IMG/VR virus record: IMGVR_UViG_3300045988_070924
Coordinates: 40,150-104,149 of that record
Length of the DNA: 64,000 nt
Direction: 5' to 3' (one strand)
Source: a virus
Part shown: piece by piece, positions 45,083 through 55,045 of the stretch
Numbering within the stretch: the first letter of the stretch is position 1
How the letters are laid out: each line of letters starts with the position of its first letter
Translations under genes and position numbers: made by a program
Notes under the pieces: generated by a model
The model's database searches: none
Told to the model about the DNA's origin: nothing
The model's input: only the letters and a program-made list of their open reading frames with translations

Positions 45083-45632
45083 TAGGCCACAGTTCCTTAA
45101 TGAAAGGTCTCAGAATCTTAGTGGCAATCTTGATGTCATCAATACTTCTGAATGCAGCAAAGTTTCTAAAGTTCTTGATTCTACCTTTAGGAACTTCACA
45201 TACTCTTCCATTAGTCATGTCAATAGTGAAATACTTGTCAACATCAGCATTGTTGATGTGGTCAGGGTATTTCCTGTCTATCAGAACTGCAAGAGCTCTA
45301 AGCACAACTGAGAACCCTGCATAGCCAGGCATTGCAGTAAGAAACTCTTTTGCTGTATCCTTTGCATGAGGAGTACCCATAAGCCATGTACTTATAAGAG
45401 CAATTATCTCATCAGGGGTAGGAACCACAGGTATTGTCTCCTCTCTGTCAGGAAATTTCTCTTCCTTGAGCATTCCTTTCATTACAAGTATTCTTGCCTG
45501 TGAGGAAGTAAGCTTGTCACTCCTGAATATATAGGTTGTCTTCACTCCCTTCTTCTTGAGAGTATCAGTAATACTAAGAGGCTCTCCAAGAGAAACCTTC
45601 TTTCCTTCTTTAGTTATAAATTTATCTCCCAT
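45075..45632 (-). CDS. hypothetical protein (185 aa)
   Basis: Intact ORF on the dominant strand. No motif recognised. Confidence 0.5.
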   Translation of the reverse strand: MGDKFITKEGKKVSLGEPLSITDTLKKKGVKTTYIFRSDKLTSSQARILVMKGMLKEEKFPDREETIPVVPTPDEIIALISTWLMGTPHAKDTAKEFLTAMPGYAGFSVVLRALAVLIDRKYPDHINNADVDKYFTIDMTNGRVCEVPKGRIKNFRNFAAFRSIDDIKIATKILRPFIKELWPNE

Positions 45633-45647
45633 AATATAAATAAAATG

Positions 45648-46292
45648 TTAAATCCAACGTATCTTCTTCTTACCTTTCTTTGCAAGAATTTCATTTATTG
45701 CATTGAAAATAAGAGGAAATTTTTCTCCAGTTCTTGCACTATATGCAGGGTGAGGTATCTCAAGAACAGTACTCTCCTTGTTGATATAAGGTCTGAATGT
45801 GCTTGCTTGTGAACCAAACAGAACAAATATTATATCTGGATTGTACAGAGACAGGTTCCTCAGAAGTTTTGATATGAAAGGTCTCCATATCATAACATGA
45901 GAACCTATCTTGTTCATCTCTACAGTAAGTGCAGAGTTAATCATAAGTATCCCCTGTTCTGCCCAGGATATTAATGAAGGGTCAAAGTTAGAATCTTTTT
46001 CTGAAATATGCAAGTCTTCAAACAAAGAATTTTTGATAACCTTCAATGAAGGGGATAGTTGTTCAGGCAAAGTTTCTGACTTATTTGCAAACAGTATACC
46101 AGTTGCAACACCTTTCTGAGGATATGGGTCTTGTCCAAGAAATACTACCCTACAGTTATCAGGACTACAGTATGAGAATGCCTTGAAAATGTCATTCTTA
46201 TCAGGACAAAAAGGTCTTCCAGATTTCATGACCTTAGACCAAGGAACAGCCATACTATCTGCTGATATTATATTATCCCAAGTCATAGGCAT
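45648..46292 (-). CDS. ung: uracil-DNA glycosylase (family 1-like)
   Basis: VVFLGQDPYP (GQDPY water-activating loop) and a C-terminal HPAYSA (HPSPLS-type Leu-intercalation loop). Confidence 0.85.
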   Translation of the reverse strand: MPMTWDNIISADSMAVPWSKVMKSGRPFCPDKNDIFKAFSYCSPDNCRVVFLGQDPYPQKGVATGILFANKSETLPEQLSPSLKVIKNSLFEDLHISEKDSNFDPSLISWAEQGILMINSALTVEMNKIGSHVMIWRPFISKLLRNLSLYNPDIIFVLFGSQASTFRPYINKESTVLEIPHPAYSARTGEKFPLIFNAINEILAKKGKKKIRWI

Positions 46293-47050
46293 CCTATTAT
46301 ATCCTGAACAATATCCTCTCTTGACAAGAACTTTTGCATATCTTCCTTGAAGGTCTGAGGACTGCCTACTTTTGCAGGTCTTTTAATCCACTCTGAAAGG
46401 TCCTCAATGATAACTTTAGGAGTTGTAGGCTTACCTAATACTCTGCTCCCTATAAATTTAAAACTCTTTGATACAAGTGAAGGTATAGCCTTGGAGATTA
46501 TACTCTTCTTGAGCATATCATCCTTAAGAAACACCTGAGGGGACACTCTCACATTAAGGGCAGAAATGGTTGCCTTCATTTTTGTTGGTCTGTAAGGAAT
46601 AGTTACAGGGGTCATGCCTGTAACAGTAACAGTATACAGGACAAGAGGTTTCATATGTTTGTCAAATATCATCCCATTTCCTCCATAATAAACCTCTTCT
46701 TTATCTGTCATAACCTTAGAGAGTCTTGCACCATATGCTGGAGTTTCTCTGAAGAAATATTTTATGATAGCATAAGAAGTGTTCCTCATGATAATATTAT
46801 CATAATATAGAGGCATAGCAATCTGCTCCCACTTTATCTTTGGCTGTGCCAAGATAGTCTCAAGATAAGGAAGCATAGCCATAGGTACTTCAAATGAACC
46901 AGTATGATTCACATCTGTACATATGTATCCATTCAGTATATCATGCTTTTCAAGACAGGAATAATTTGTAACAAATGCACCTGTATCTGCATATATAGTA
47001 TTGAAAGGATAAGTGATGGTGTCATTGTAAGATGTTGAAGTCATAATCAA
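46283..47050 (-). CDS. hypothetical protein (255 aa), translationally coupled to the E1-like gene
   Basis: Overlaps of 4 nt upstream and 10 nt downstream. No motif recognised. Confidence 0.55.
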   Translation of the reverse strand: MIMTSTSYNDTITYPFNTIYADTGAFVTNYSCLEKHDILNGYICTDVNHTGSFEVPMAMLPYLETILAQPKIKWEQIAMPLYYDNIIMRNTSYAIIKYFFRETPAYGARLSKVMTDKEEVYYGGNGMIFDKHMKPLVLYTVTVTGMTPVTIPYRPTKMKATISALNVRVSPQVFLKDDMLKKSIISKAIPSLVSKSFKFIGSRVLGKPTTPKVIIEDLSEWIKRPAKVGSPQTFKEDMQKFLSREDIVQDIIGCL

Positions 47051-47994
47051 GCCTCCGTAGTAAACATCATCAAAGAAGCATCATATGATGTAAGGAATGG
47101 AAGACTCCTATCTATCATAGGCTTTTCATCACCCTCAAGGTCATTGGCACAGAAATTTACAAAGAGGTTAGTCATGATAGAACCAATCATATTAGCCATG
47201 AAAGTTGTCTGCTTATAACTACAGAGTGTGGCATCAGCCTCATCATCTGAGAACAGCCAGTCTCTCTCATACCTCTCCATATCATAACTGGCATCACCCT
47301 GTATACACAGAACCTGGAACTCCTCTGCTGCAAGCCTTCCATCTATGAATAGGCAGTGCTTTCTTAGTCCTTCAGGTATGCTCATTACATGGTGTTTCCA
47401 TACATTGTAGAATATCCTTCTGGCAGTCATATTGTCAAATCCACAAATCATGATGTCAGTAGGAGGGGAATCTTCTGTGAATCTTTCATTGACAGAGGTT
47501 ATGGAATAATAATTACTGTAATCATGCATCATGTTAGTCACGGCTTGAGCCTTAGTCTTGTTGAGGTCAAGAACACTGTAGAACTGCCCCGACATATTTG
47601 CCATTTCTACAGTATCATCATCATATATTCTTATGTGACTAGGCTTCATTCTTGAAAGAAGGAAAGCCACATAAGAACCTATACCCCCTAAACCTGCAAG
47701 AGTGATTATCTTCTCCTGCACTTTATTGTACCACACTGCACTACTGAACCTTGAAGTACTCGTGTCAATGGTAATAGTCCCAGAGTTGGTAGAAATCCTA
47801 TCATTAGGCAGCTCAGGAACAGTAATTTCACTGCTTATACTTGGGTACTCTGGGTATACAGCCTGTTCTTCTATCTCTTCAGAAGTATTCTCTTCAGGAA
47901 CAGCGGTCTCAATATGCCCCTCATTGAGCTGGTTTATAAAATCACTAACTGCTTCAGCCAGTCTAACTGACGTACTTTGTGTATCCTGTGTCAT
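47047..47994 (-). CDS. ThiF/MoeB/E1-like adenylyltransferase-fold protein
   Basis: LAGLGGIGSYVAFLLSRMKPSHIRIYDDDTVEMANMSGQFY (nt ~47584-47694) fits the E1/ThiF GxGxxG...D.D.V...N..RQ signature. CGFDNMTARRIF follows downstream. Confidence 0.7.
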   Translation of the reverse strand: MTQDTQSTSVRLAEAVSDFINQLNEGHIETAVPEENTSEEIEEQAVYPEYPSISSEITVPELPNDRISTNSGTITIDTSTSRFSSAVWYNKVQEKIITLAGLGGIGSYVAFLLSRMKPSHIRIYDDDTVEMANMSGQFYSVLDLNKTKAQAVTNMMHDYSNYYSITSVNERFTEDSPPTDIMICGFDNMTARRIFYNVWKHHVMSIPEGLRKHCLFIDGRLAAEEFQVLCIQGDASYDMERYERDWLFSDDEADATLCSYKQTTFMANMIGSIMTNLFVNFCANDLEGDEKPMIDRSLPFLTSYDASLMMFTTEA

Positions 47995-49127
47995 GCTATT
48001 TCCTCCTCAAGTCTAAACTTGATAGCATCAAGTATCTTGTTATCAGGCAATTGCTCACACATACTAAGCAATCTAGCTGCCACTGCCTTGGCTATCATAT
48101 CAGAATCCTCATTTTCAACTTCCTTCCAGTTAGTATACCATGTAAGGAACTCTATATAGTGGTCAAGCCAGTTCTCAAGGTCCTGAGGGTCAGGGAACCT
48201 TCTGAGGAAAGCCCTCTCCATTACAGATGAACACCACTTCTCCATATCAAACTTGTCACTAAAACCAGCTGTGATAGAACCAGTTACTAACTGTACAAGC
48301 AGTCTTTGAGCCAACTCTTGAGGAACTTCAATATTGACCCAACTCCCATCTGTTTCTGAAGGAGATGTTTCTTCAGCAGGGAACAATGTTGGCTGTATTG
48401 ATATTCTCTGTGAGGGAAACTTTCCAGTAAATGATACTCCCTCTTCTCTCTCAGAGGATACGTCTTCCTCCTTGGTAGAAGGGAAGTTAGTTCTTCTTAC
48501 AGTAGTTTTCTCTGCTTCTATTTCTTTGATTCTCTGAGTAACTTCATCCCTGATAGATGTATCTTCCTGTACATCTATCTCAAGAGGAAATGCTTCAAGG
48601 TATTCATTGATAGTAGATTCCACTTCCTCAGACTTACTTTCTCCACCAAAGGTAGGATAGGTTATCTTAGAGGTCTGAAGACTCACTCTTCTGGTAATCT
48701 TGGCAGTATATACACCTACATTATTCACTATAAGAGAGAGGAAATGAGGCATATCCATACCTTCCTCTATAAGAGTGTTTCTGTCTGTTCCACTGAAGAA
48801 TGTTGCCATTTGGTTATGTGAGTGGATAAGTCCCGTATAGCAGTCAAGCAAGTCATTCATTGCCTGATAGGTAACAATATCAGCACTATGGTCAAACTCT
48901 GTATAGGTAGCAGAACCTATATCAGATACATAAATGTCCTTACAAGTAATAACCAAAGAATTATCCTCAAAAGAACCTTCTACTGTGTAGAACAGTGTTC
49001 CAGACCATTCTTTGGTAGGGAAATGATAACACCATTCCCTTATCTTTCTCTGAACTAAATCAGGTATTATGAGTTTATACGTAGAACGTCTGTCTATCAA
49101 GCTCAGACTCTTCTTCTTTTCTTCCAT
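47991..49127 (-). CDS. JAB/MPN (JAMM) metallopeptidase domain protein with an uncharacterised ~230-aa C-terminal region
   Basis: Exact JAMM spacing H102-S-H104-x7-S112-x2-D115 in GLIHSHNQMATFFSGTD (nt 48783-48824), with an upstream Glu in TKEWSG. Confidence 0.7.
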   Translation of the reverse strand: MEEKKKSLSLIDRRSTYKLIIPDLVQRKIREWCYHFPTKEWSGTLFYTVEGSFEDNSLVITCKDIYVSDIGSATYTEFDHSADIVTYQAMNDLLDCYTGLIHSHNQMATFFSGTDRNTLIEEGMDMPHFLSLIVNNVGVYTAKITRRVSLQTSKITYPTFGGESKSEEVESTINEYLEAFPLEIDVQEDTSIRDEVTQRIKEIEAEKTTVRRTNFPSTKEEDVSSEREEGVSFTGKFPSQRISIQPTLFPAEETSPSETDGSWVNIEVPQELAQRLLVQLVTGSITAGFSDKFDMEKWCSSVMERAFLRRFPDPQDLENWLDHYIEFLTWYTNWKEVENEDSDMIAKAVAARLLSMCEQLPDNKILDAIKFRLEEEIA

Positions 49128-50244
49128 ATCTTAAATTTACAACTTTACAAATAGCTGATACTATATCTCTTATAACACTTTCTTGCAGTAAGGTAGCTGG
49201 ATGCTGTTCAGAGGAAGGAGTATCATCTATGTGTAATTTAATCTCTCTTCCTTTGAAGTTACATACAAGTTTACCCTCATAGTTCCTATAATTACTGATA
49301 CTTTCATTAGCCCTGATAGTATAGATTTTACCATCAACTATCATATACTCTCCAAGGATGTTCATATCCTTCAAATACCGAAAATCATACAACCTCCTGT
49401 ATGGATTGTCTTCAAGATTGAACCATTCTATGAACTTATTACTAATCAAGATGGCAGCATCATAATAAGACATTCCAAGACAGTATGTTCCATTTGAGTA
49501 TTCCATAGGAAGAGAGACATTCTTAAGTAAGTATCTTGTGAAATCTGGTATGATTCCAAGGTCTACACCCCTAAATTCATATGTAGGTCTTGCTACCTTT
49601 CCATAAAATCCTCTGGCTACATAAAGGAACTTCTGTGTCACACCAGAAGTTGTGTTGGCACCTATAGCTTCAAGTTTCCTATAAGGCACTCCTTCAACTG
49701 ACTCTACTTGAGTAAAGTCTTCAAGTTCACTACAGAATAACTGCCACATATCTTCATCAAACTCCCTGTTAAGACCTCCAATAGTAACATTGATAGGTCC
49801 ACTTCCAGTACAAGGTGTAAGAAAGTTTAAGAAGTTAGAGGTATTTATTCCAGGAATATGGGAATGCATATAGTTAGCCCTCATATGACTTAATGGGTAA
49901 GTAGCTCTATTGAGATAGAACTTTCCTATAAGTTGCCCCTCTGTATCAATCTTTACTTTAGCATAAAGGTCTTGTATATCTACAGACTTGTTATACTCAT
50001 TAGTGACTCTCACTTGAGGAAACCATACAAGTATAAATATACCACTTGGGAATGATATAGCATCTGTATTATTCTTCCCTAATGATTTATTTTCACAGAA
50101 CTTCTCCTTAGTACAGAACCCTCGCATATCCACTTTATCTTCTCCAAAGTAATCACTGAATATTTCAAGGATTCTTTTTGGTTTCTCCATCAGGCTGTCA
50201 TACAGATTTTCCCATTCTTTTTTCTGTTCATCTGTCATATTCAT
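49075..50244 (-). CDS. hypothetical protein (389 aa); weak E2-like candidate
   Basis: Intact ORF whose end overlaps the JAB gene by 53 nt. FILVWFPQVRV..VDIQDLYAKVKID..LIGKFYLNRATYP...YMHSHIPG-x11-PCTG loosely recalls a UBC beta-meander plus HPN..C flap. This was not verified. Confidence 0.5.
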   Translation of the reverse strand: MNMTDEQKKEWENLYDSLMEKPKRILEIFSDYFGEDKVDMRGFCTKEKFCENKSLGKNNTDAISFPSGIFILVWFPQVRVTNEYNKSVDIQDLYAKVKIDTEGQLIGKFYLNRATYPLSHMRANYMHSHIPGINTSNFLNFLTPCTGSGPINVTIGGLNREFDEDMWQLFCSELEDFTQVESVEGVPYRKLEAIGANTTSGVTQKFLYVARGFYGKVARPTYEFRGVDLGIIPDFTRYLLKNVSLPMEYSNGTYCLGMSYYDAAILISNKFIEWFNLEDNPYRRLYDFRYLKDMNILGEYMIVDGKIYTIRANESISNYRNYEGKLVCNFKGREIKLHIDDTPSSEQHPATLLQESVIRDIVSAICKVVNLRYGRKEEESELDRQTFYV

Positions 50245-50250
50245 CCCTAT

Positions 50251-50296
50251 AAAAAAGGGGGATAAGGGAGAGGAAATTCATCCTAACCCTTATCCC
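50251..50296 (-). terminator. rho-independent terminator/attenuator between the 223-aa gene and the 389-aa gene
   Basis: GGGATAAGGG (50259-50268) pairs with CCCTTATCCC (50287-50296). The loop can extend the stem through AGGA/TCCT pairing. CC plus U6 follows on the minus strand. Confidence 0.7.
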
Positions 50297-50302
50297 TCAT
50301 TA

Positions 50303-50974
50303 TTAGAAGTTAAACTGTTCAGCAAGTTCATCATAGGACTGCTCCCTTTCTACAGGAAGAGCAGGCTCACCATTGACAACACCCCAGATGTTATCAGCAT
50401 CATGCTGCATGAAAACTCCCTTAGATACCATCTCATCAAGAAGGTTTCTAAGATTAGACATCATTTCTTTTCCTGATGCTGGCATAGTATAGGCATCTGC
50501 CTTAACTACTTTCTCCTTTGCTATAGGAGCAGGAGTATGTTTAGGAGTCTTCTTGGCTACATTTTCACCAGCTTTCTCCTTCTTCTCTATATAGGAGATA
50601 AGGATAGCAGTTGAACACTGGGTGAAGTTCTTTCCCTCATGTTCCTGAATTTTTCCTTGAAGACCAAGCTCCTTAACTCTTGCATAAGCTTCTTTCCTGT
50701 CCATAGCACCAGACTTAATTTTCTTCTGAGGTGCAGTGACCATGAACACAAGGTCATTAGTTACCTGACCCTTCCAAGGAATGTTAGAAGGGAGGATAGA
50801 CTCATCAGATGTAAGGATAGTCTTTGAAGCAGCCTCCTTAAATACACAATCTGAATCATACTTTACCTGTTTTTCTCTCAGTTCATTCTTAAGCTCACCA
50901 AGAGTGGTAGCATTTGACTCAAACACAACTTTGCTCTGTGTGCTCTCTACAAGCACAGTAACTTTTCTACTCAT
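50303..50974 (-). CDS. hypothetical protein: N-terminal ubiquitin-like (beta-grasp) candidate plus HeH/SAP-like motif
   Basis: Residues 4-89 alternate strand/helix as in a beta-grasp and end in KIKSG. AMDRKEAYARVKELGLQGKIQEHEGKNFTQCSTAILISYIE resembles a HeH/SAP helix pair. The fold assignment is unverified. Confidence 0.5.
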   Translation of the reverse strand: MSRKVTVLVESTQSKVVFESNATTLGELKNELREKQVKYDSDCVFKEAASKTILTSDESILPSNIPWKGQVTNDLVFMVTAPQKKIKSGAMDRKEAYARVKELGLQGKIQEHEGKNFTQCSTAILISYIEKKEKAGENVAKKTPKHTPAPIAKEKVVKADAYTMPASGKEMMSNLRNLLDEMVSKGVFMQHDADNIWGVVNGEPALPVEREQSYDELAEQFNF

Positions 50975-50986
50975 TTTTGTTTTTTT

Positions 50987-51964
50987 TTAGTTTACTAATT
51001 CATATATAACCCCTCTCAGAACCTCTCTTCCATGATTTTTTACTAAATCCGAAGGGTCCTTGCTCTCCCACTTCTCAGGTATTTCAATCTGAGTAACATT
51101 AAATTTCTCAGCAATCATCTCACCATACATCCTTCCATGGTTCTCTTCACTTTGAAAGTCATTATCATAAAGTACATAAACCTTATTATATCTGTCTTTC
51201 AACTGTTGAACTACATGCTCCTTTGGTATATAACCTTCCCCCTGCAAGCTAAGGGCAGGAATACCTGTATTGGACCATATAGCAAGGGCATCTTTTCTTG
51301 ATGAAGTGATAATCAGTTTATCACCTTTCTCTGGAATCTTAGTCCATAAATCCCATACAGAAGAGTCATGTTTAGACATCCACTTATACTCTTTTGAGTA
51401 GGGCTGGTAAATCTTGAATGAGACTATACCATCTTTCCTTTCTACATATACATAAGCATACTTCTCTGCTGGAATAGGATAAGAGTGTCCATTTTTAGTA
51501 AAGATAATATGAGATATGGGATATATTTCTCCAAATTTAAGCCAAGGCAGTGATATTCCATAGGAATCCCAATAGGCAATATCATAGTCCCTCCATTCCC
51601 TAACTCTAACTTCAACTTTGCCTGCTGACTTCCTGTACACCTTTACTCCATGCTTTCTCATAGGGGCGGGAGCAGGCATATCTTCAAGGATTCTTTTATA
51701 CACCTTATCTTTGGAGACATTCCACATTTTGGCAAGAAGGTCATACAGACTTCCTCCTTCTCCACTTCCAAAATCTTTGAACCACAGACTATTGGTCTTG
51801 CTGTTTATGAACAATCCCAATGAAGGGTTATTGTCCTGTCTGAGTGGAGAATTAATTACTTCAGGAACACAAGTAATACCTAAATACTTGTGTGCAATAT
51901 CAAAGTCTGAATATAGGTCATTGACCTTCTCAATAGAAGTACTGTCTGAACCTCTTGCTACCAT
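50987..51964 (-). CDS. DnaG-type (Toprim) DNA primase with a degenerate zinc-finger region
   Basis: Toprim elements: IITSSRKDALAIW ... LQGEG ... VYVLYDNDF. The N-terminal SPLRQDNNPSLGLF...FKDFGSGEGGSLYD aligns by pattern to the CPFH..TPSF...CFGCG..GD zinc ribbon, but all Cys/His positions are replaced. Confidence 0.7.
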   Translation of the reverse strand: MVARGSDSTSIEKVNDLYSDFDIAHKYLGITCVPEVINSPLRQDNNPSLGLFINSKTNSLWFKDFGSGEGGSLYDLLAKMWNVSKDKVYKRILEDMPAPAPMRKHGVKVYRKSAGKVEVRVREWRDYDIAYWDSYGISLPWLKFGEIYPISHIIFTKNGHSYPIPAEKYAYVYVERKDGIVSFKIYQPYSKEYKWMSKHDSSVWDLWTKIPEKGDKLIITSSRKDALAIWSNTGIPALSLQGEGYIPKEHVVQQLKDRYNKVYVLYDNDFQSEENHGRMYGEMIAEKFNVTQIEIPEKWESKDPSDLVKNHGREVLRGVIYELVN

Positions 51965-53321: not shown

Positions 53322-53714
53322 TTAGTTGTTACTTCCAAAGTAATACTCCTTCATAGTATCCACAACATACCCAAGGTCATTAGGTATATACAGTGGAAAC
53401 ATTCCCACAGGAGATTTTGCTGGATACTGTCCATCATCATTGGTTACAAACTCTCTGATGGACTTCTTTTCTTTCTCATCATATGAGGCTTTTCCATAAA
53501 GGACTACTTCAAACTTACCCTCAGGAGTGATATACTGGTCAACCATGTTTCCAGTACTCTTATATCTGTAAGACAGACTGTCCCCATTCTTATCCTTGTA
53601 CTCCTCATAATGAGCAAGACAAATCATGTTCTTATCTTCAGGAACCTTGTTGATTGCATCAAAGATAAGTCCCATACCATAGCCAATCTGCTTTGGTGTC
53701 AAGTTGTTATCCAC
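53322..53714 (-). CDS. P-loop ATPase, C-terminal exon
   Basis: This ORF lies downstream of the endonuclease insertion. The track start is a GTG. It continues the ATPase gene begun at 55045. Confidence 0.6.
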   Translation of the reverse strand: MDNNLTPKQIGYGMGLIFDAINKVPEDKNMICLAHYEEYKDKNGDSLSYRYKSTGNMVDQYITPEGKFEVVLYGKASYDEKEKKSIREFVTNDDGQYPAKSPVGMFPLYIPNDLGYVVDTMKEYYFGSNN

Positions 53715-53849: not shown

Positions 53850-54572
53850 CTATGCGTTACACTGTGCAGTTCTTTTATCTACTGCATTTAGCACGGTATT
53901 AAGTGCTTTATCCCTTTTTCTTTTTAAGAACACTGTAGCATTTTTATATAAATAGTCAAATATTGGTCTTCTGACTTTTATACTATAACTAAAATGTAGA
54001 CTCCAATAAGGAGTAGTTTTTCTAACCTCTCTGTATATAACCCATTTTAGTTCAGGAATAGCCTTGATAAATCTATCCTTAATCTGTTCTGCAAATTTAG
54101 GAGAGTTACAAATCATACTGAAATGTCTATCTCCTATAGACCCATCTCCATCTATAAATCCTCTGATAAAATCTCTTTCAAATTCTTCAGGAATATTAGG
54201 AAATTCAAAATCAGCATCATAGGTCTTTCTTGGCTGTATATTGTATAAAGTCCTTAAGTCATTTATAAGTTCCTTATCACATATCTGAAGAATAGTAGTT
54301 TGTTTTCTGTTACCTTCAGGTTGATAAAATCTAAGATTATTATTAGGAGCTATCTCTTTTTGTATTAACCTTATAATTTCATCATCCTCTGATACACAAC
54401 CAAATCTAAGTCTTACTAATTTGCTAGGTCTGTCTTTTCTTATTGACTCCTCTATAGAGCCGTCTGCTACTAAATAACCTAAAATATAGGCTTTAACTTC
54501 AGAATCTATATTTCTGAAGTAATCACTTTTGTGTTCTTTCTTTCCAGGAATAAAACTTCTCATAATTATCAT
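53850..54572 (-). CDS. LAGLIDADG homing endonuclease (double-motif)
   Basis: Contains LGYLVADGSI and FIRGFIDGDGSI. The start was set to the ATG at 54572 (MIIMRSF), downstream of a promoter box. Confidence 0.8.
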   Translation of the reverse strand: MIIMRSFIPGKKEHKSDYFRNIDSEVKAYILGYLVADGSIEESIRKDRPSKLVRLRFGCVSEDDEIIRLIQKEIAPNNNLRFYQPEGNRKQTTILQICDKELINDLRTLYNIQPRKTYDADFEFPNIPEEFERDFIRGFIDGDGSIGDRHFSMICNSPKFAEQIKDRFIKAIPELKWVIYREVRKTTPYWSLHFSYSIKVRRPIFDYLYKNATVFLKRKRDKALNTVLNAVDKRTAQCNA

Positions 54573-54584
54573 ATATTTGGTTGG

Positions 54585-54592
54585 CAAATATA
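54585..54592 (-). promoter_or_regulatory. candidate -7 promoter element (TATATTTG) for the intron-encoded endonuclease
   Basis: The forward strand reads CAAATATA, 12 nt upstream of the ATG at 54572. Confidence 0.35.
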
Positions 54593-54658
54593 CAAATAAA
54601 TAATGAGAAATGCAATACCCTTCACCGTTTTTACCCAATTATTTTCACATAGATTACT

Positions 54659-55045
54659 CTATGCAGGGACACACATTCTATCCCATCCTCCCTTGAGAGC
54701 ATTCTTCATATAGAAGTCCTGAGATATGTAGTTCATATCATCAAGAACTATGTTCTCATAAGGGGAATTAGCAAGCAATTCAATTACTGCTGCAATGGTC
54801 TTTGCATCATTAGAGATAAGTCTGTTCCCAGATGCTATCTCAGCAGGGAAAGTCTTGTCTGTTGGCTGACTCTTAACCTTGGCAATCTTATACTGAGAAG
54901 CAGCACCTCTAAAAGGAAGAGGTTTATTCACACAGCTAATCAGATAAGTCTTGGCTGGGTCAAGCCCTTTAAGTCCCAATTCAGGAATAGCACCAATTGA
55001 GGTACTCTTCCCAAATCCACTTTTTGCAAGCACTAATGCTTTCAT
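54659..55045 (-). CDS. P-loop ATPase (AAA_24/Sak4-like candidate), N-terminal exon
   Basis: Walker A is LAKSGFGKSTS and Walker B is IVLDDMNYI. The last few codons before the stop are probably intronic. Confidence 0.65.
   Translation of the reverse strand: MKALVLAKSGFGKSTSIGAIPELGLKGLDPAKTYLISCVNKPLPFRGAASQYKIAKVKSQPTDKTFPAEIASGNRLISNDAKTIAAVIELLANSPYENIVLDDMNYISQDFYMKNALKGGWDRMCVPA

Follow-up and report, generated by a model that had tools for sequence, protein, structure and literature searches.

Analysis of a 64,000-nucleotide (nt) stretch of the viral record IMGVR_UViG_3300045988_070924 (the window, in which all positions below are numbered unless another locus is named) points to a phage-encoded module that would mature and activate a ubiquitin-like protein (Ubl) and would share transcripts with the replication genes of a crAss-like phage of the Steigviridae type. 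We propose this interpretation, which draws on sequence comparisons and structural models, with moderate confidence. The window is a large portion of a crAss-like phage genome, in which a single long block of minus-strand genes extends from about 17.9 kb to 64 kb. The module comprises five open reading frames (ORFs) of this block, labeled A to E:

50303-50974, minus strand: gene A, 223 amino acids (aa), predicted Ubl precursor, homolog of crAss001 gp79
49075-50244, minus strand: gene B, 389 aa, enzyme-like protein with no fold assigned, candidate transfer enzyme or effector, homolog of crAss001 gp78
47991-49127, minus strand: gene C, 378 aa, JAB/JAMM metallopeptidase with a C-terminal domain to which no function is assigned, homolog of crAss001 gp77
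47047-47994, minus strand: gene D, 315 aa, minimal E1-like (ThiF-family) adenylating enzyme, homolog of crAss001 gp76
46283-47050, minus strand: gene E, 255 aa, poorly conserved protein encoded after the E1 gene, homolog of crAss001 gp75

The original prediction, made from the DNA letters alone, had placed all five ORFs exactly, and every motif that it quoted in proteins A, B, C, and D was found at its position, as were the 4-nt overlaps. Its ORF list needs one small correction, as the start listed for gene E is a TTG, with an ATG two codons downstream (47042-47044). Genes E and D overlap by 4 nt (47047-47050), D and C by 4 nt (47991-47994), and C and B by 53 nt (49075-49127); B and A are separated by 58 nt, and A and the upstream primase gene by 12 nt.

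Protein D can be firmly assigned by sequence to the E1/ThiF-type adenylating enzymes. Its main features are as follows:

47050-47757, minus strand: E1 adenylation core, residues 80-315 (residues 1-79 form a variable extension)
47221-47223, minus strand: candidate catalytic Cys258

The protein harbors the motifs GLGGIGS-x13-IRIYDDDTVE-M-AN-M-SGQ and CGFDNMTARR, and the Pfam ThiF model (PF00899) matches residues 89 to 201 with an E value of 4e-17 (62.6 bits, for a gathering score of 28.1). A profile of ten divergent homologs run against the PDB matched UBA5 best (8e-13), followed by MccB (9e-12), PaaA (3e-11), TcdA (2.5e-9), and ThiF/MoeB (2e-8 to 6e-8), with eukaryotic E1s, Cap2, and BubCD also among the matches. 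The best PADLOC matches were CBASS E1-E2 (2e-12) and BilD (7e-6), and the best NCBIfam matches were generic ThiF models, the similarity to both libraries being confined to the Rossmann part. R82, G101-x-G103-G104, D125, D127, N133, Q137, K148, D187 (the Mg-binding Asp of GFDNM), R192, D218, R220, and C258 are invariant in ten divergent homologs, and the alignment of the nucleotide-binding residues to the UBA5 motifs suggests that they are functionally equivalent. The E1-like adenylase predicted for this ORF is thus upheld. Cys258 is located 71 residues past the Mg-binding Asp and is conserved in all 89 homologs scanned, within CSYKQT in 88 of them and CTMKQT in the other. With about 230 residues, the core is a short, single domain; in front of it, protein D has a variable 80-residue extension that FpV4, Dulem virus 41, and cr111_1 lack.

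Similarly, the assignment of a JAB/JAMM peptidase domain with an intact catalytic motif to protein C is firm at the sequence level. The residues concerned are encoded at the following positions:

48783-48824, minus strand: JAMM motif H102-S-H104-x7-S112-x2-D115, sequence HSHNQMATFFSGTD
49008-49010, minus strand: predicted catalytic Glu40, in an EWSG context upstream of the JAMM motif

Among ten divergent homologs, H102, S103, H104, S112, and D115 never vary and E40 hardly does, and every one of the 89 homologous JAB genes scanned, which represent 83 distinct sequences, has the HxH-x7-S-x2-D pattern. In addition to a match to Pfam Prok-JAB, to which we return below, protein C matched the CBASS JAB model of PADLOC (0.0068) and, in the PDB profile search, CSN5 (0.0052) and archaeal JAMM1 (0.037), both weakly and aligned on the motif. 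The JAMM peptidase expected from this ORF was thereby supported, and the features of proteins C and D exceed what chance would produce. As no RadC model of Pfam or NCBIfam matched protein C at E ≤ 1, the possibility raised with the original prediction that it might cluster with RadC-type proteins found no support.

The third component, protein A, is predicted to begin with a β-grasp domain. Gene A can be divided as follows:

50726-50974, minus strand: β-grasp (ubiquitin-like) domain by AlphaFold2 (AF2) and Foldseek, residues 1-83
50708-50725, minus strand: flexible tail KKIKSG, residues 84-89, with processing and activation predicted after Gly89
50561-50704, minus strand: helical segment, residues 91-138, HeH/SAP-like by pattern alone
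50306-50479, minus strand: C-terminal helices and acidic/aromatic tail, residues 166-223, ending in ...SYDELAEQFNF

Of the protein homolog searches, the first returned only sequences of at least 89% identity, the second was dominated by one clade, and the third yielded 32 proteins; the AF2 model was built from 35 homologs of about six lineages, a shallow alignment. In this model, residues 1 to 83 have a predicted local distance difference test (pLDDT) score of 81 to 93 and are arranged in the order strand-strand-helix-strand...strand, and the tail (KKIKSG) has a pLDDT below 50. It is followed by three helices (93-102, 106-113, and 122-138), a disordered stretch, and further helices (168-184, 190-200, and 214-220). 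When the domain was compared with the PDB using Foldseek, the top 50 matches consisted almost entirely of ubiquitin-like domains, with probabilities of about 1.0 and target-normalized template modeling scores of about 0.6. A bacterial Ubl from a Bil system (8tyx_A) ranked first, ahead of ubiquitin variants, SUMO1, DIX domains, and the kindlin F1 domain. The model and these matches agree with the β-grasp segment that had been read at the N terminus of this ORF. Of the HeH/SAP-like motif proposed to follow it, the helical nature and the pattern are retained. No match to the Pfam SAP, HeH, or Rho_N models was found in that segment. In an alignment of ten homologs, the region after the putative cleavage site has the conserved pattern R-x-E-x-Y...GL...KN-x-T, and in the C-terminal tail E216 is invariant within a conserved S-x-x-E-[IL]-x-x-[ML]-F.

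Two further features of the C-terminal extension were observed. The acidic/aromatic tail (50306-50340) recalls the partner-binding tails of single-strand-binding proteins. In Kolpuevirus phages, the variable region past Ser-Gly of the predicted Ubl precursors has an inserted ribosomal L7/L12 C-terminal domain (PF00542), as in L007 3987-4913 (cr126_1) and some 90 metagenomic homologs (P0125-P0240); the JGI name for such precursors is 'large subunit ribosomal protein L7/L12'.

The junction between the predicted β-grasp domain and its extension is marked by a conserved dipeptide. K84, S88, and G89 are invariant in ten divergent homologs of protein A (24 to 40% identity), and Ser-Gly was found at this site in 85 of the 86 homologs scanned, the 86th not being read. 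The dipeptide is invariant from Steigviridae to FpV4, and distant lineages close the β-grasp with ...KQTKSGG (FpV4-like phages and L093) or ...SKNSGG (L091). The sequence past the glycine is wholly different among these lineages: Steigviridae have an HeH-like segment and an acidic tail, L091 has a sequence resembling a coiled coil, and FpV4 has a long region rich in charged residues. Gly89 is internal in the protein A of the window. In four phages, by contrast, namely, the GenBank phage cr106_1 and three IMG/VR loci, gene A is split at this very site by an insertion:

L090 2995-4198 (cr106_1)
L042 3485-4441
L061 3156-4372
L023 3144-4460

The insertion is an HNH/NUMOD homing-endonuclease gene, present as a decayed remnant in L042, that lies between the codons for Gly89 and Met91; comparison with the nucleotide sequence of an unsplit relative indicated that codon 90 alone has been replaced. 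The first ORF of the split alleles encodes a stand-alone Ubl of 91 to 92 aa that ends in ...KKIKSG-KF or ...KKIRSG-IC, i.e., two residues past the Gly, and the second, which has an ATG of its own, reads on as ...MTR-x-EAY. Such splits are found in lineages with Ubl parts only 59% identical to each other, and both halves are still intact. No group I intron was identified at the split site of L042 or L061 by Rfam at E ≤ 1. We read these alleles as genes-in-pieces whose halves would act as separate polypeptides, and as the halves correspond to what proteolysis after Gly89 would yield in unsplit phages, this reading fits a processing model. The special role attributed to Gly89 is thus reinforced both by its conservation from Steigviridae to FpV4 and by the position of the four splits.

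The two remaining proteins lack recognizable relatives of known function. The relevant parts of gene B are listed here:

49675-50142, minus strand: conserved core, residues 35-190, comprising H127-S128-H129, C145, and E181-S182
49858-49866, minus strand: H127-S128-H129
49810-49812, minus strand: C145

Protein B contains the motif YMHSHIPG-x11-PC and belongs to a large family, with 3,162 representative clusters found at E ≤ 0.001 in an exhaustive HMMER search in which each cluster at 50% identity was represented by one sequence. Its alignments are devoid of any conserved stretch of 7 to 10 residues, and within 140 to 149 diverse sequences, S128, H129, C145, E181, S182, and P187 are invariant and N82, R113, Y125, H127, G147, and G185 are conserved in at least 95%. 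Judging from the alignment, this invariant pattern is an active-site signature, and protein B is no spacer protein. Its invariant Cys past the His motif would suit a transfer enzyme that forms a thioester, as it would other chemistries.

The loose E2-likeness that had been ascribed to protein B did not gain support. There was no match to Pfam, including its prokaryotic E2 families, to NCBIfam, PADLOC, or PHROGs, or to PDB sequences using profiles of 10 and 140 sequences. Foldseek searches of the PDB gave at best an E value of 0.15 with a probability of 0.06, and those of BFVD gave only uncharacterized crAss-like homologs; hhalign gave a probability of 0.2% against the ubiquitin-conjugating (UBC) domains of UBE2D2/N/I/L3. 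The His motif and the invariant C145 bear a resemblance to those of E2 enzymes, with a spacing of 16 residues, compared with about 8 in UBC domains. An E2/UBC-like identity of protein B was rejected for lack of support in these searches. As the AF2 model of protein B is poor (mean pLDDT of 58), this is a weak negative for an E2 fold; a second alignment used for AF2 comprised 31 sequences that were about 20% identical to the query. The N-terminal half of protein B is modeled with moderate confidence as a long helix, six strands, the loop with H127-S128-H129 and C145, and two helices. Thus, of the β-grasp and E2-like folds sought in the neighbors of the E1 and JAMM genes, the former was found by AF2 and Foldseek in protein A, and the latter was not found in protein B. 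Protein E is weakly conserved, with G126 and D130 its only invariant residues, and did not match Pfam, NCBIfam, PHROG, or PDB entries.

A megablast search of 50,697 GenBank phage records with the 4.7-kb region returned no match, and protein searches were therefore used. By tblastn, protein D was found in 78 of these records, B in 74, C in 52, and A in 45. The matched records are Steigviridae (Asinivirinae) crAss-like phages, including the cultured crAss001, DAC15/17, PhiCrAssBcn phages, and Kolpuevirus/Kehishuvirus isolates, two unclassified relatives, and the Fipvunavirus phages of Flavobacterium psychrophilum, of which FpV4 and Fpv3 have been placed just outside the crAss groups (PMC7886860). 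ThiF matches in Moraxella phages (27 to 28% identity) and Acinetobacter phages were set aside as not representing this module, as the other module proteins were unmatched there. The closest relatives of the window are IMG/VR contigs of about 103 kb (L010-L012 and L066), whose E1 proteins are 85 to 86% identical to protein D, and the window phage probably represents a species or genus of Steigviridae outside the 50,697-record collection.

All nine GenBank loci inspected have the order primase-A-B-C-D-E, with the uracil-DNA glycosylase (UDG) gene after gene E in eight of them and between the primase gene and A in FpV4. When the hidden Markov models (HMMs) of the five families were used to scan 89 loci (9 from GenBank and 80 from IMG/VR), the order A-B-C-D-E on one strand was found in each of the 86 loci not cut by a contig end; the other three are end-cut, and gene E follows the E1 gene in all 89. 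The five genes are thus strictly co-inherited, and the synteny that the original prediction had proposed as a check in related Crassvirales holds, including in FpV4. The divergent metagenomic lineages L091 and L093 maintain the same order. L091 (6480-10121) and L092 have a minimal module, with a precursor of 154 aa carrying a coiled-coil-like tail after ...SKNSGG, a JAMM protein of 224 aa without the C-terminal domain, and an E1 of 232 aa; the E-family HMM did not detect the gene after E1 in these two loci.

When 185,579 prokaryotic species, each represented by one genome, were scanned for the E1 signature, seven loci emerged, all on contigs of metagenome-assembled genomes (MAGs), six with parts of the module and one a 30-residue fragment. 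The E1 type of protein D therefore appears to be phage restricted. The six module-bearing MAG contigs (L094-L099, from GTDB) are labeled Bacilli, Acholeplasmatales, Spirochaetia, Clostridium, and Tissierellales, and are most likely crAss-like phage contigs contaminating bacterial bins.

The module is embedded in an operon of replication and nucleotide metabolism genes, with the following immediate neighbors:

50987-51964: DnaG-type primase, upstream of the module
45648-46292: UDG, downstream of the module

Genes for a DnaB-like helicase, an SF2 helicase, and a Sak4-like ATPase are also found upstream, and those for a DUF1064 endonuclease, a PD-(D/E)XK exonuclease, and an anaerobic-type ribonucleotide reductase downstream. 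No RNA family was found by Rfam between positions 45500 and 52000.

The combination of E1 and JAMM had been likened to CBASS Cap2/Cap3, Bil, and PRTRC-type cassettes. The module shares principles with type I Bub and with E2-less systems, yet it displays the defining features of none of PRTRC, CBASS, Bil, and Bub. In type I Bub (6E.1/DUF6527), a Ubl-E2 fusion is cut by the JAMM domain of the same operon just past a conserved Gly (Ye et al. 2024, PMC11601596). There too the Ubl is the N-terminal part of a fusion released by its own JAMM protein, a cleavage that is predicted in the phage module, and the E1, of the UBA5/ThiF type, is likewise minimal with one adenylation domain, BubCD being among the PDB matches of the phage E1. 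However, Bub fuses Ubl to E2 and JAMM to E1, whereas the phage has four separate genes, and the extension joined to its Ubl is helical and not an E2. The E1 and E2 of Bub have no catalytic Cys and proceed through oxyester intermediates, in contrast to the invariant C258 of the phage E1 and C145 of protein B; no BubE/DUF6527 homolog was found in the module by profile scans, and Bub resides in bacterial defense islands rather than in phages.

Bil systems similarly combine a Ubl, a JAMM peptidase, and an E1, and they provide the best structural match of the phage Ubl (8tyx_A) and a weak, local PADLOC match of the phage E1 (BilD, 7e-6). They differ in having a recognizable E2 (BilB), to which PADLOC found no match in the phage module, whose E1 core has one adenylation domain of about 230 aa. 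In addition, the Bil literature describes no precursor in which the Ubl carries a long extension at its C terminus. The SAMP/UbaA/HvJAMM1 and TtuB/TtuC systems consist of a Ubl, a single-domain Cys E1, and a JAMM protein, without recognizable E2 or E3. The phage module presents a comparable set, with Cys258 of its E1 as a candidate catalytic Cys and again with no recognizable E2 or E3, and archaeal JAMM1 is among the few PDB matches of its JAMM protein. SAMP and TtuB Ubls are small, stand-alone proteins with Gly-Gly ends, encoded by cellular housekeeping genes, and they double as sulfur carriers in tRNA thiolation or molybdopterin synthesis; no companions resembling B or E are found there.

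Type II CBASS also has an E1-type adenylation domain and a JAMM protein in a small cassette, and its E1-E2 protein is the best PADLOC match of protein D (2e-12). However, Cap2 is an E2-E1 fusion whose substrate is the C terminus of the CD-NTase and not a Ubl, whereas the phage E1 has one domain, preceded by an extension that is variable and not an E2. No E2 domain was found in the module, and no CD-NTase or effector families in the module, the four flanking ORFs, or six more distant ORFs. PRTRC shares with the phage module a ThiF-family protein on a mobile element (plasmids and integrative and conjugative elements) beside DNA maintenance genes. The PRTRC_ThiF model of NCBIfam matched protein D at 1e-8 with 34.8 bits, for a cutoff of 144.75, generic ThiF models scoring higher, and the PRTRC A, B, C, E, and ParB models had no match at E ≤ 1 among nine proteins scanned (five of the module and four flanking). 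A phage-encoded parallel is TAPI of lambdoid phages and T1, a Ubl with a conserved C-terminal Gly and a linker-fused domain, predicted to be released by the neighboring JAB protein TAPK (Iyer et al. 2006, PMC1779556). There also, a Ubl with a conserved Gly is linked to a C-terminal domain, and TAPK combines JAB with NlpC/P60. In contrast to the module described here, TAPI/TAPK has no E1 or activation step and belongs to tail assembly, not replication, and no sequence relationship was detectable.

We propose the following mechanism. The product of gene A would be a precursor in which a β-grasp domain is followed by the floppy tail KKIKSG89 and then by a C-terminal extension that varies among relatives. 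The JAMM peptidase (C) would cut it after Gly89 to release an 89-residue Ubl with a C-terminal Gly and a separate helical protein, and would probably also reverse any conjugates. Among characterized pathways, type I Bub is the nearest precedent for this cut; JAMM cleavage of MoaD-MoaE fusions by DRJAMM (PMC8832034) offers a second, and the same had been predicted for TAPI. The E1 (D) would then bind ATP, adenylate Gly89, and probably load the Ubl onto Cys258, after which the Ubl would be passed to a target protein, possibly through Cys145 of protein B acting with His-Ser-His as a new transfer enzyme. The invariant Cys of the E1, its likeness to UBA5, and the Bil-like Ubl make us lean toward conjugation as the outcome, either independent of E2 as for SAMP/TtuB or via protein B. 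The position in the replication operon, the DNA-binding-like extension of protein A, and its acidic tail like those of single-strand-binding proteins suggest by analogy a replication-linked role. It is possible, and we offer it tentatively, that Steigviridae and FpV4 phages run their own Ubl conjugation during replication, with protein B, through its invariant His-Ser-His/Cys/Glu-Ser center, attaching the Ubl to phage or host replisome or defense proteins.

Several observations weigh against a Ubl maturation and activation module. As the β-grasp of protein A is undetected by sequence profiles, including those of Pfam, the Ubl fold rests on one AF2 model from a shallow alignment; the Foldseek E values are about 1e-3 at best, and hhalign found no match between the domain and ubiquitin, NEDD8, SUMO1, ThiS, or MoaD. 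Most members have Ser-Gly at the end of the tail instead of Gly-Gly, and it is conceivable, despite the negative Rfam result, that the split alleles contain introns removed by splicing. The Prok-JAB match of protein C is a near miss (8.9e-5 and 22.8 bits, for a gathering score of 25). The location of Cys258 in a crossover loop is deduced from its position, and the PDB profile search aligned no solved structure to the C-terminal half of protein D; in E1 enzymes, the catalytic Cys of the crossover loop is required for the thioester or persulfide and not for adenylation. Enzymes that do not act on Ubls (MccB, 9e-12, as well as PaaA and TcdA) match protein D nearly as well as UBA5 does, and profile, Foldseek, and hhalign searches identified no recognizable E2 or E3 in the module. 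The lack of a recognizable E2, together with the affinities of protein D for ThiF/MoeB (2e-8 to 6e-8, with ThiF models as best NCBIfam matches), keeps alive an explanation in which the matured Ubl would be converted to a thiocarboxylate like ThiS, MoaD, CysO, TtuB, or SAMP, and its sulfur transferred to a thiolated nucleotide, a tRNA base, or a cofactor, with protein B as a sulfur-using enzyme. A Ubl, an E1, and a JAMM protein without E2 are typical of sulfur carrier pathways (Iyer et al. 2006, PMC1779556), and MoaD-MoaE fusions are cut by a JAMM enzyme, DRJAMM (PMC8832034). Protein B, while no recognizable E2, has an invariant Cys/His/Ser/Glu set like an enzyme, and the ribonucleotide reductase and UDG genes nearby belong to nucleotide metabolism. 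Nevertheless, we consider a sulfur carrier unlikely. The nine proteins scanned and six further ones contain no rhodanese, cysteine desulfurase, or PP-loop ATPase domain, sulfur carriers usually end in Gly-Gly, and the nearest Ubl structure and nearest E1 are a conjugating Bil Ubl and UBA5, respectively. We know of no thiolated product in these phages.

The proximity of MccB (9e-12), PaaA (3e-11), and TcdA (2.5e-9) to UBA5 (8e-13) in the PDB profile search would also accommodate an E1 that acts on another substrate, by adenylation of a peptide C terminus as in MccB/PaaA or nucleotide cyclodehydration as in TcdA. The JAMM protein would then be a general peptidase or a scaffold, and protein A an uncut replisome accessory, as its DNA-binding-like helices, its acidic tail, and the adjoining primase gene might suggest; Ubl domains are often noncovalent interaction modules. 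Such a pathway is hard to reconcile with an invariant Ser-Gly in a disordered tail at the end of the domain, past which the sequence varies freely, with split alleles located precisely at the Gly89 junction, or with the strict co-inheritance of the β-grasp, JAMM, and E1 genes, and the module has neither an MccB-type peptide-clamp domain nor a small precursor-peptide gene; we regard it as improbable. An explanation compatible with Ubl maturation and activation is counterdefense by mimicry, in which the JAMM protein, perhaps with the E1, would act on Ubl-type defenses of the host, for instance by stripping CD-NTase conjugates in the manner of Cap3 or by taking Bil Ubl off phage proteins, and the phage Ubl would serve as a decoy. 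Bacterial Ubl systems are antiphage (PMC11601596), the top structural match of the phage Ubl is that of Bil, and PADLOC related protein D to CBASS E1-E2 (2e-12) and BilD (7e-6) and protein C to CBASS JAB (0.0068). As these similarities are at the superfamily level only, and as the module lies inside the replication operon of every relative rather than in a variable accessory island and is kept in phages of hosts as unlike as Bacteroides and Flavobacterium, we find this very unlikely. A simple deconjugase, moreover, would need no E1 of its own, no Ubl precursor, and no two additional conserved proteins.

The module was thought to be undescribed in crAss-like phages. Its genes are in fact already annotated; it is their reading as a Ubl system that was not encountered in the searchable literature. 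In GenBank, gp76 of crAss001 is a 'thiamine biosynthesis protein, ThiF' and gp77 a 'metalloprotease domain containing protein', one relative is annotated 'E1 enzyme family protein', and module genes are elsewhere 'hypothetical'. No paper describing a Ubl system in crAss-like phages was found in the searchable literature (subscription-only literature being outside its scope), and the module genes go unmentioned in both the crAss001 paper and the 2021 paper on the crAss virome. The label 'thiamine biosynthesis protein', which has been propagated through Crassvirales records, is misleading and is corrected here. Thus far, bacterial Ubl conjugation has been tied to antiphage defense (CBASS, Bil, and probably Bub) or to sulfur metabolism. 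If our interpretation is correct, bacterial viruses also use Ubl chemistry, in parallel to eukaryotic viruses that exploit ubiquitin, and they do so from the replication operon of one family within the most abundant phage group of the human gut. It would also give a first clue to the function of two large orphan families, the gp78-like (at least 3,162 representative clusters) and gp75-like proteins. As crAss001 and DAC15 are cultured and have the same five genes, the module is experimentally tractable.

Two minor observations concern gene arrangement. The overlap between the 3′ end of gene B and the 5′ end of the JAMM gene, 53 nt in the window (49075-49127), is unusually long for simple translational coupling, and overlaps of about 50 to 125 nt are annotated in eight of the nine GenBank relatives (L001-L004 and L006-L009). 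The ninth, DAC15, has no annotated overlap, and the N terminus of its JAB protein looks truncated in the alignment. Farther upstream, the Sak4-like ATPase gene is in two pieces on the minus strand, and no group I intron was identified there by Rfam at E ≤ 1. The N-terminal piece (54659-55045), with its Walker A motif (GFGKST), and the C-terminal piece (53322-53714) flank an ORF for a LAGLIDADG_3 homing endonuclease (53850-54638).

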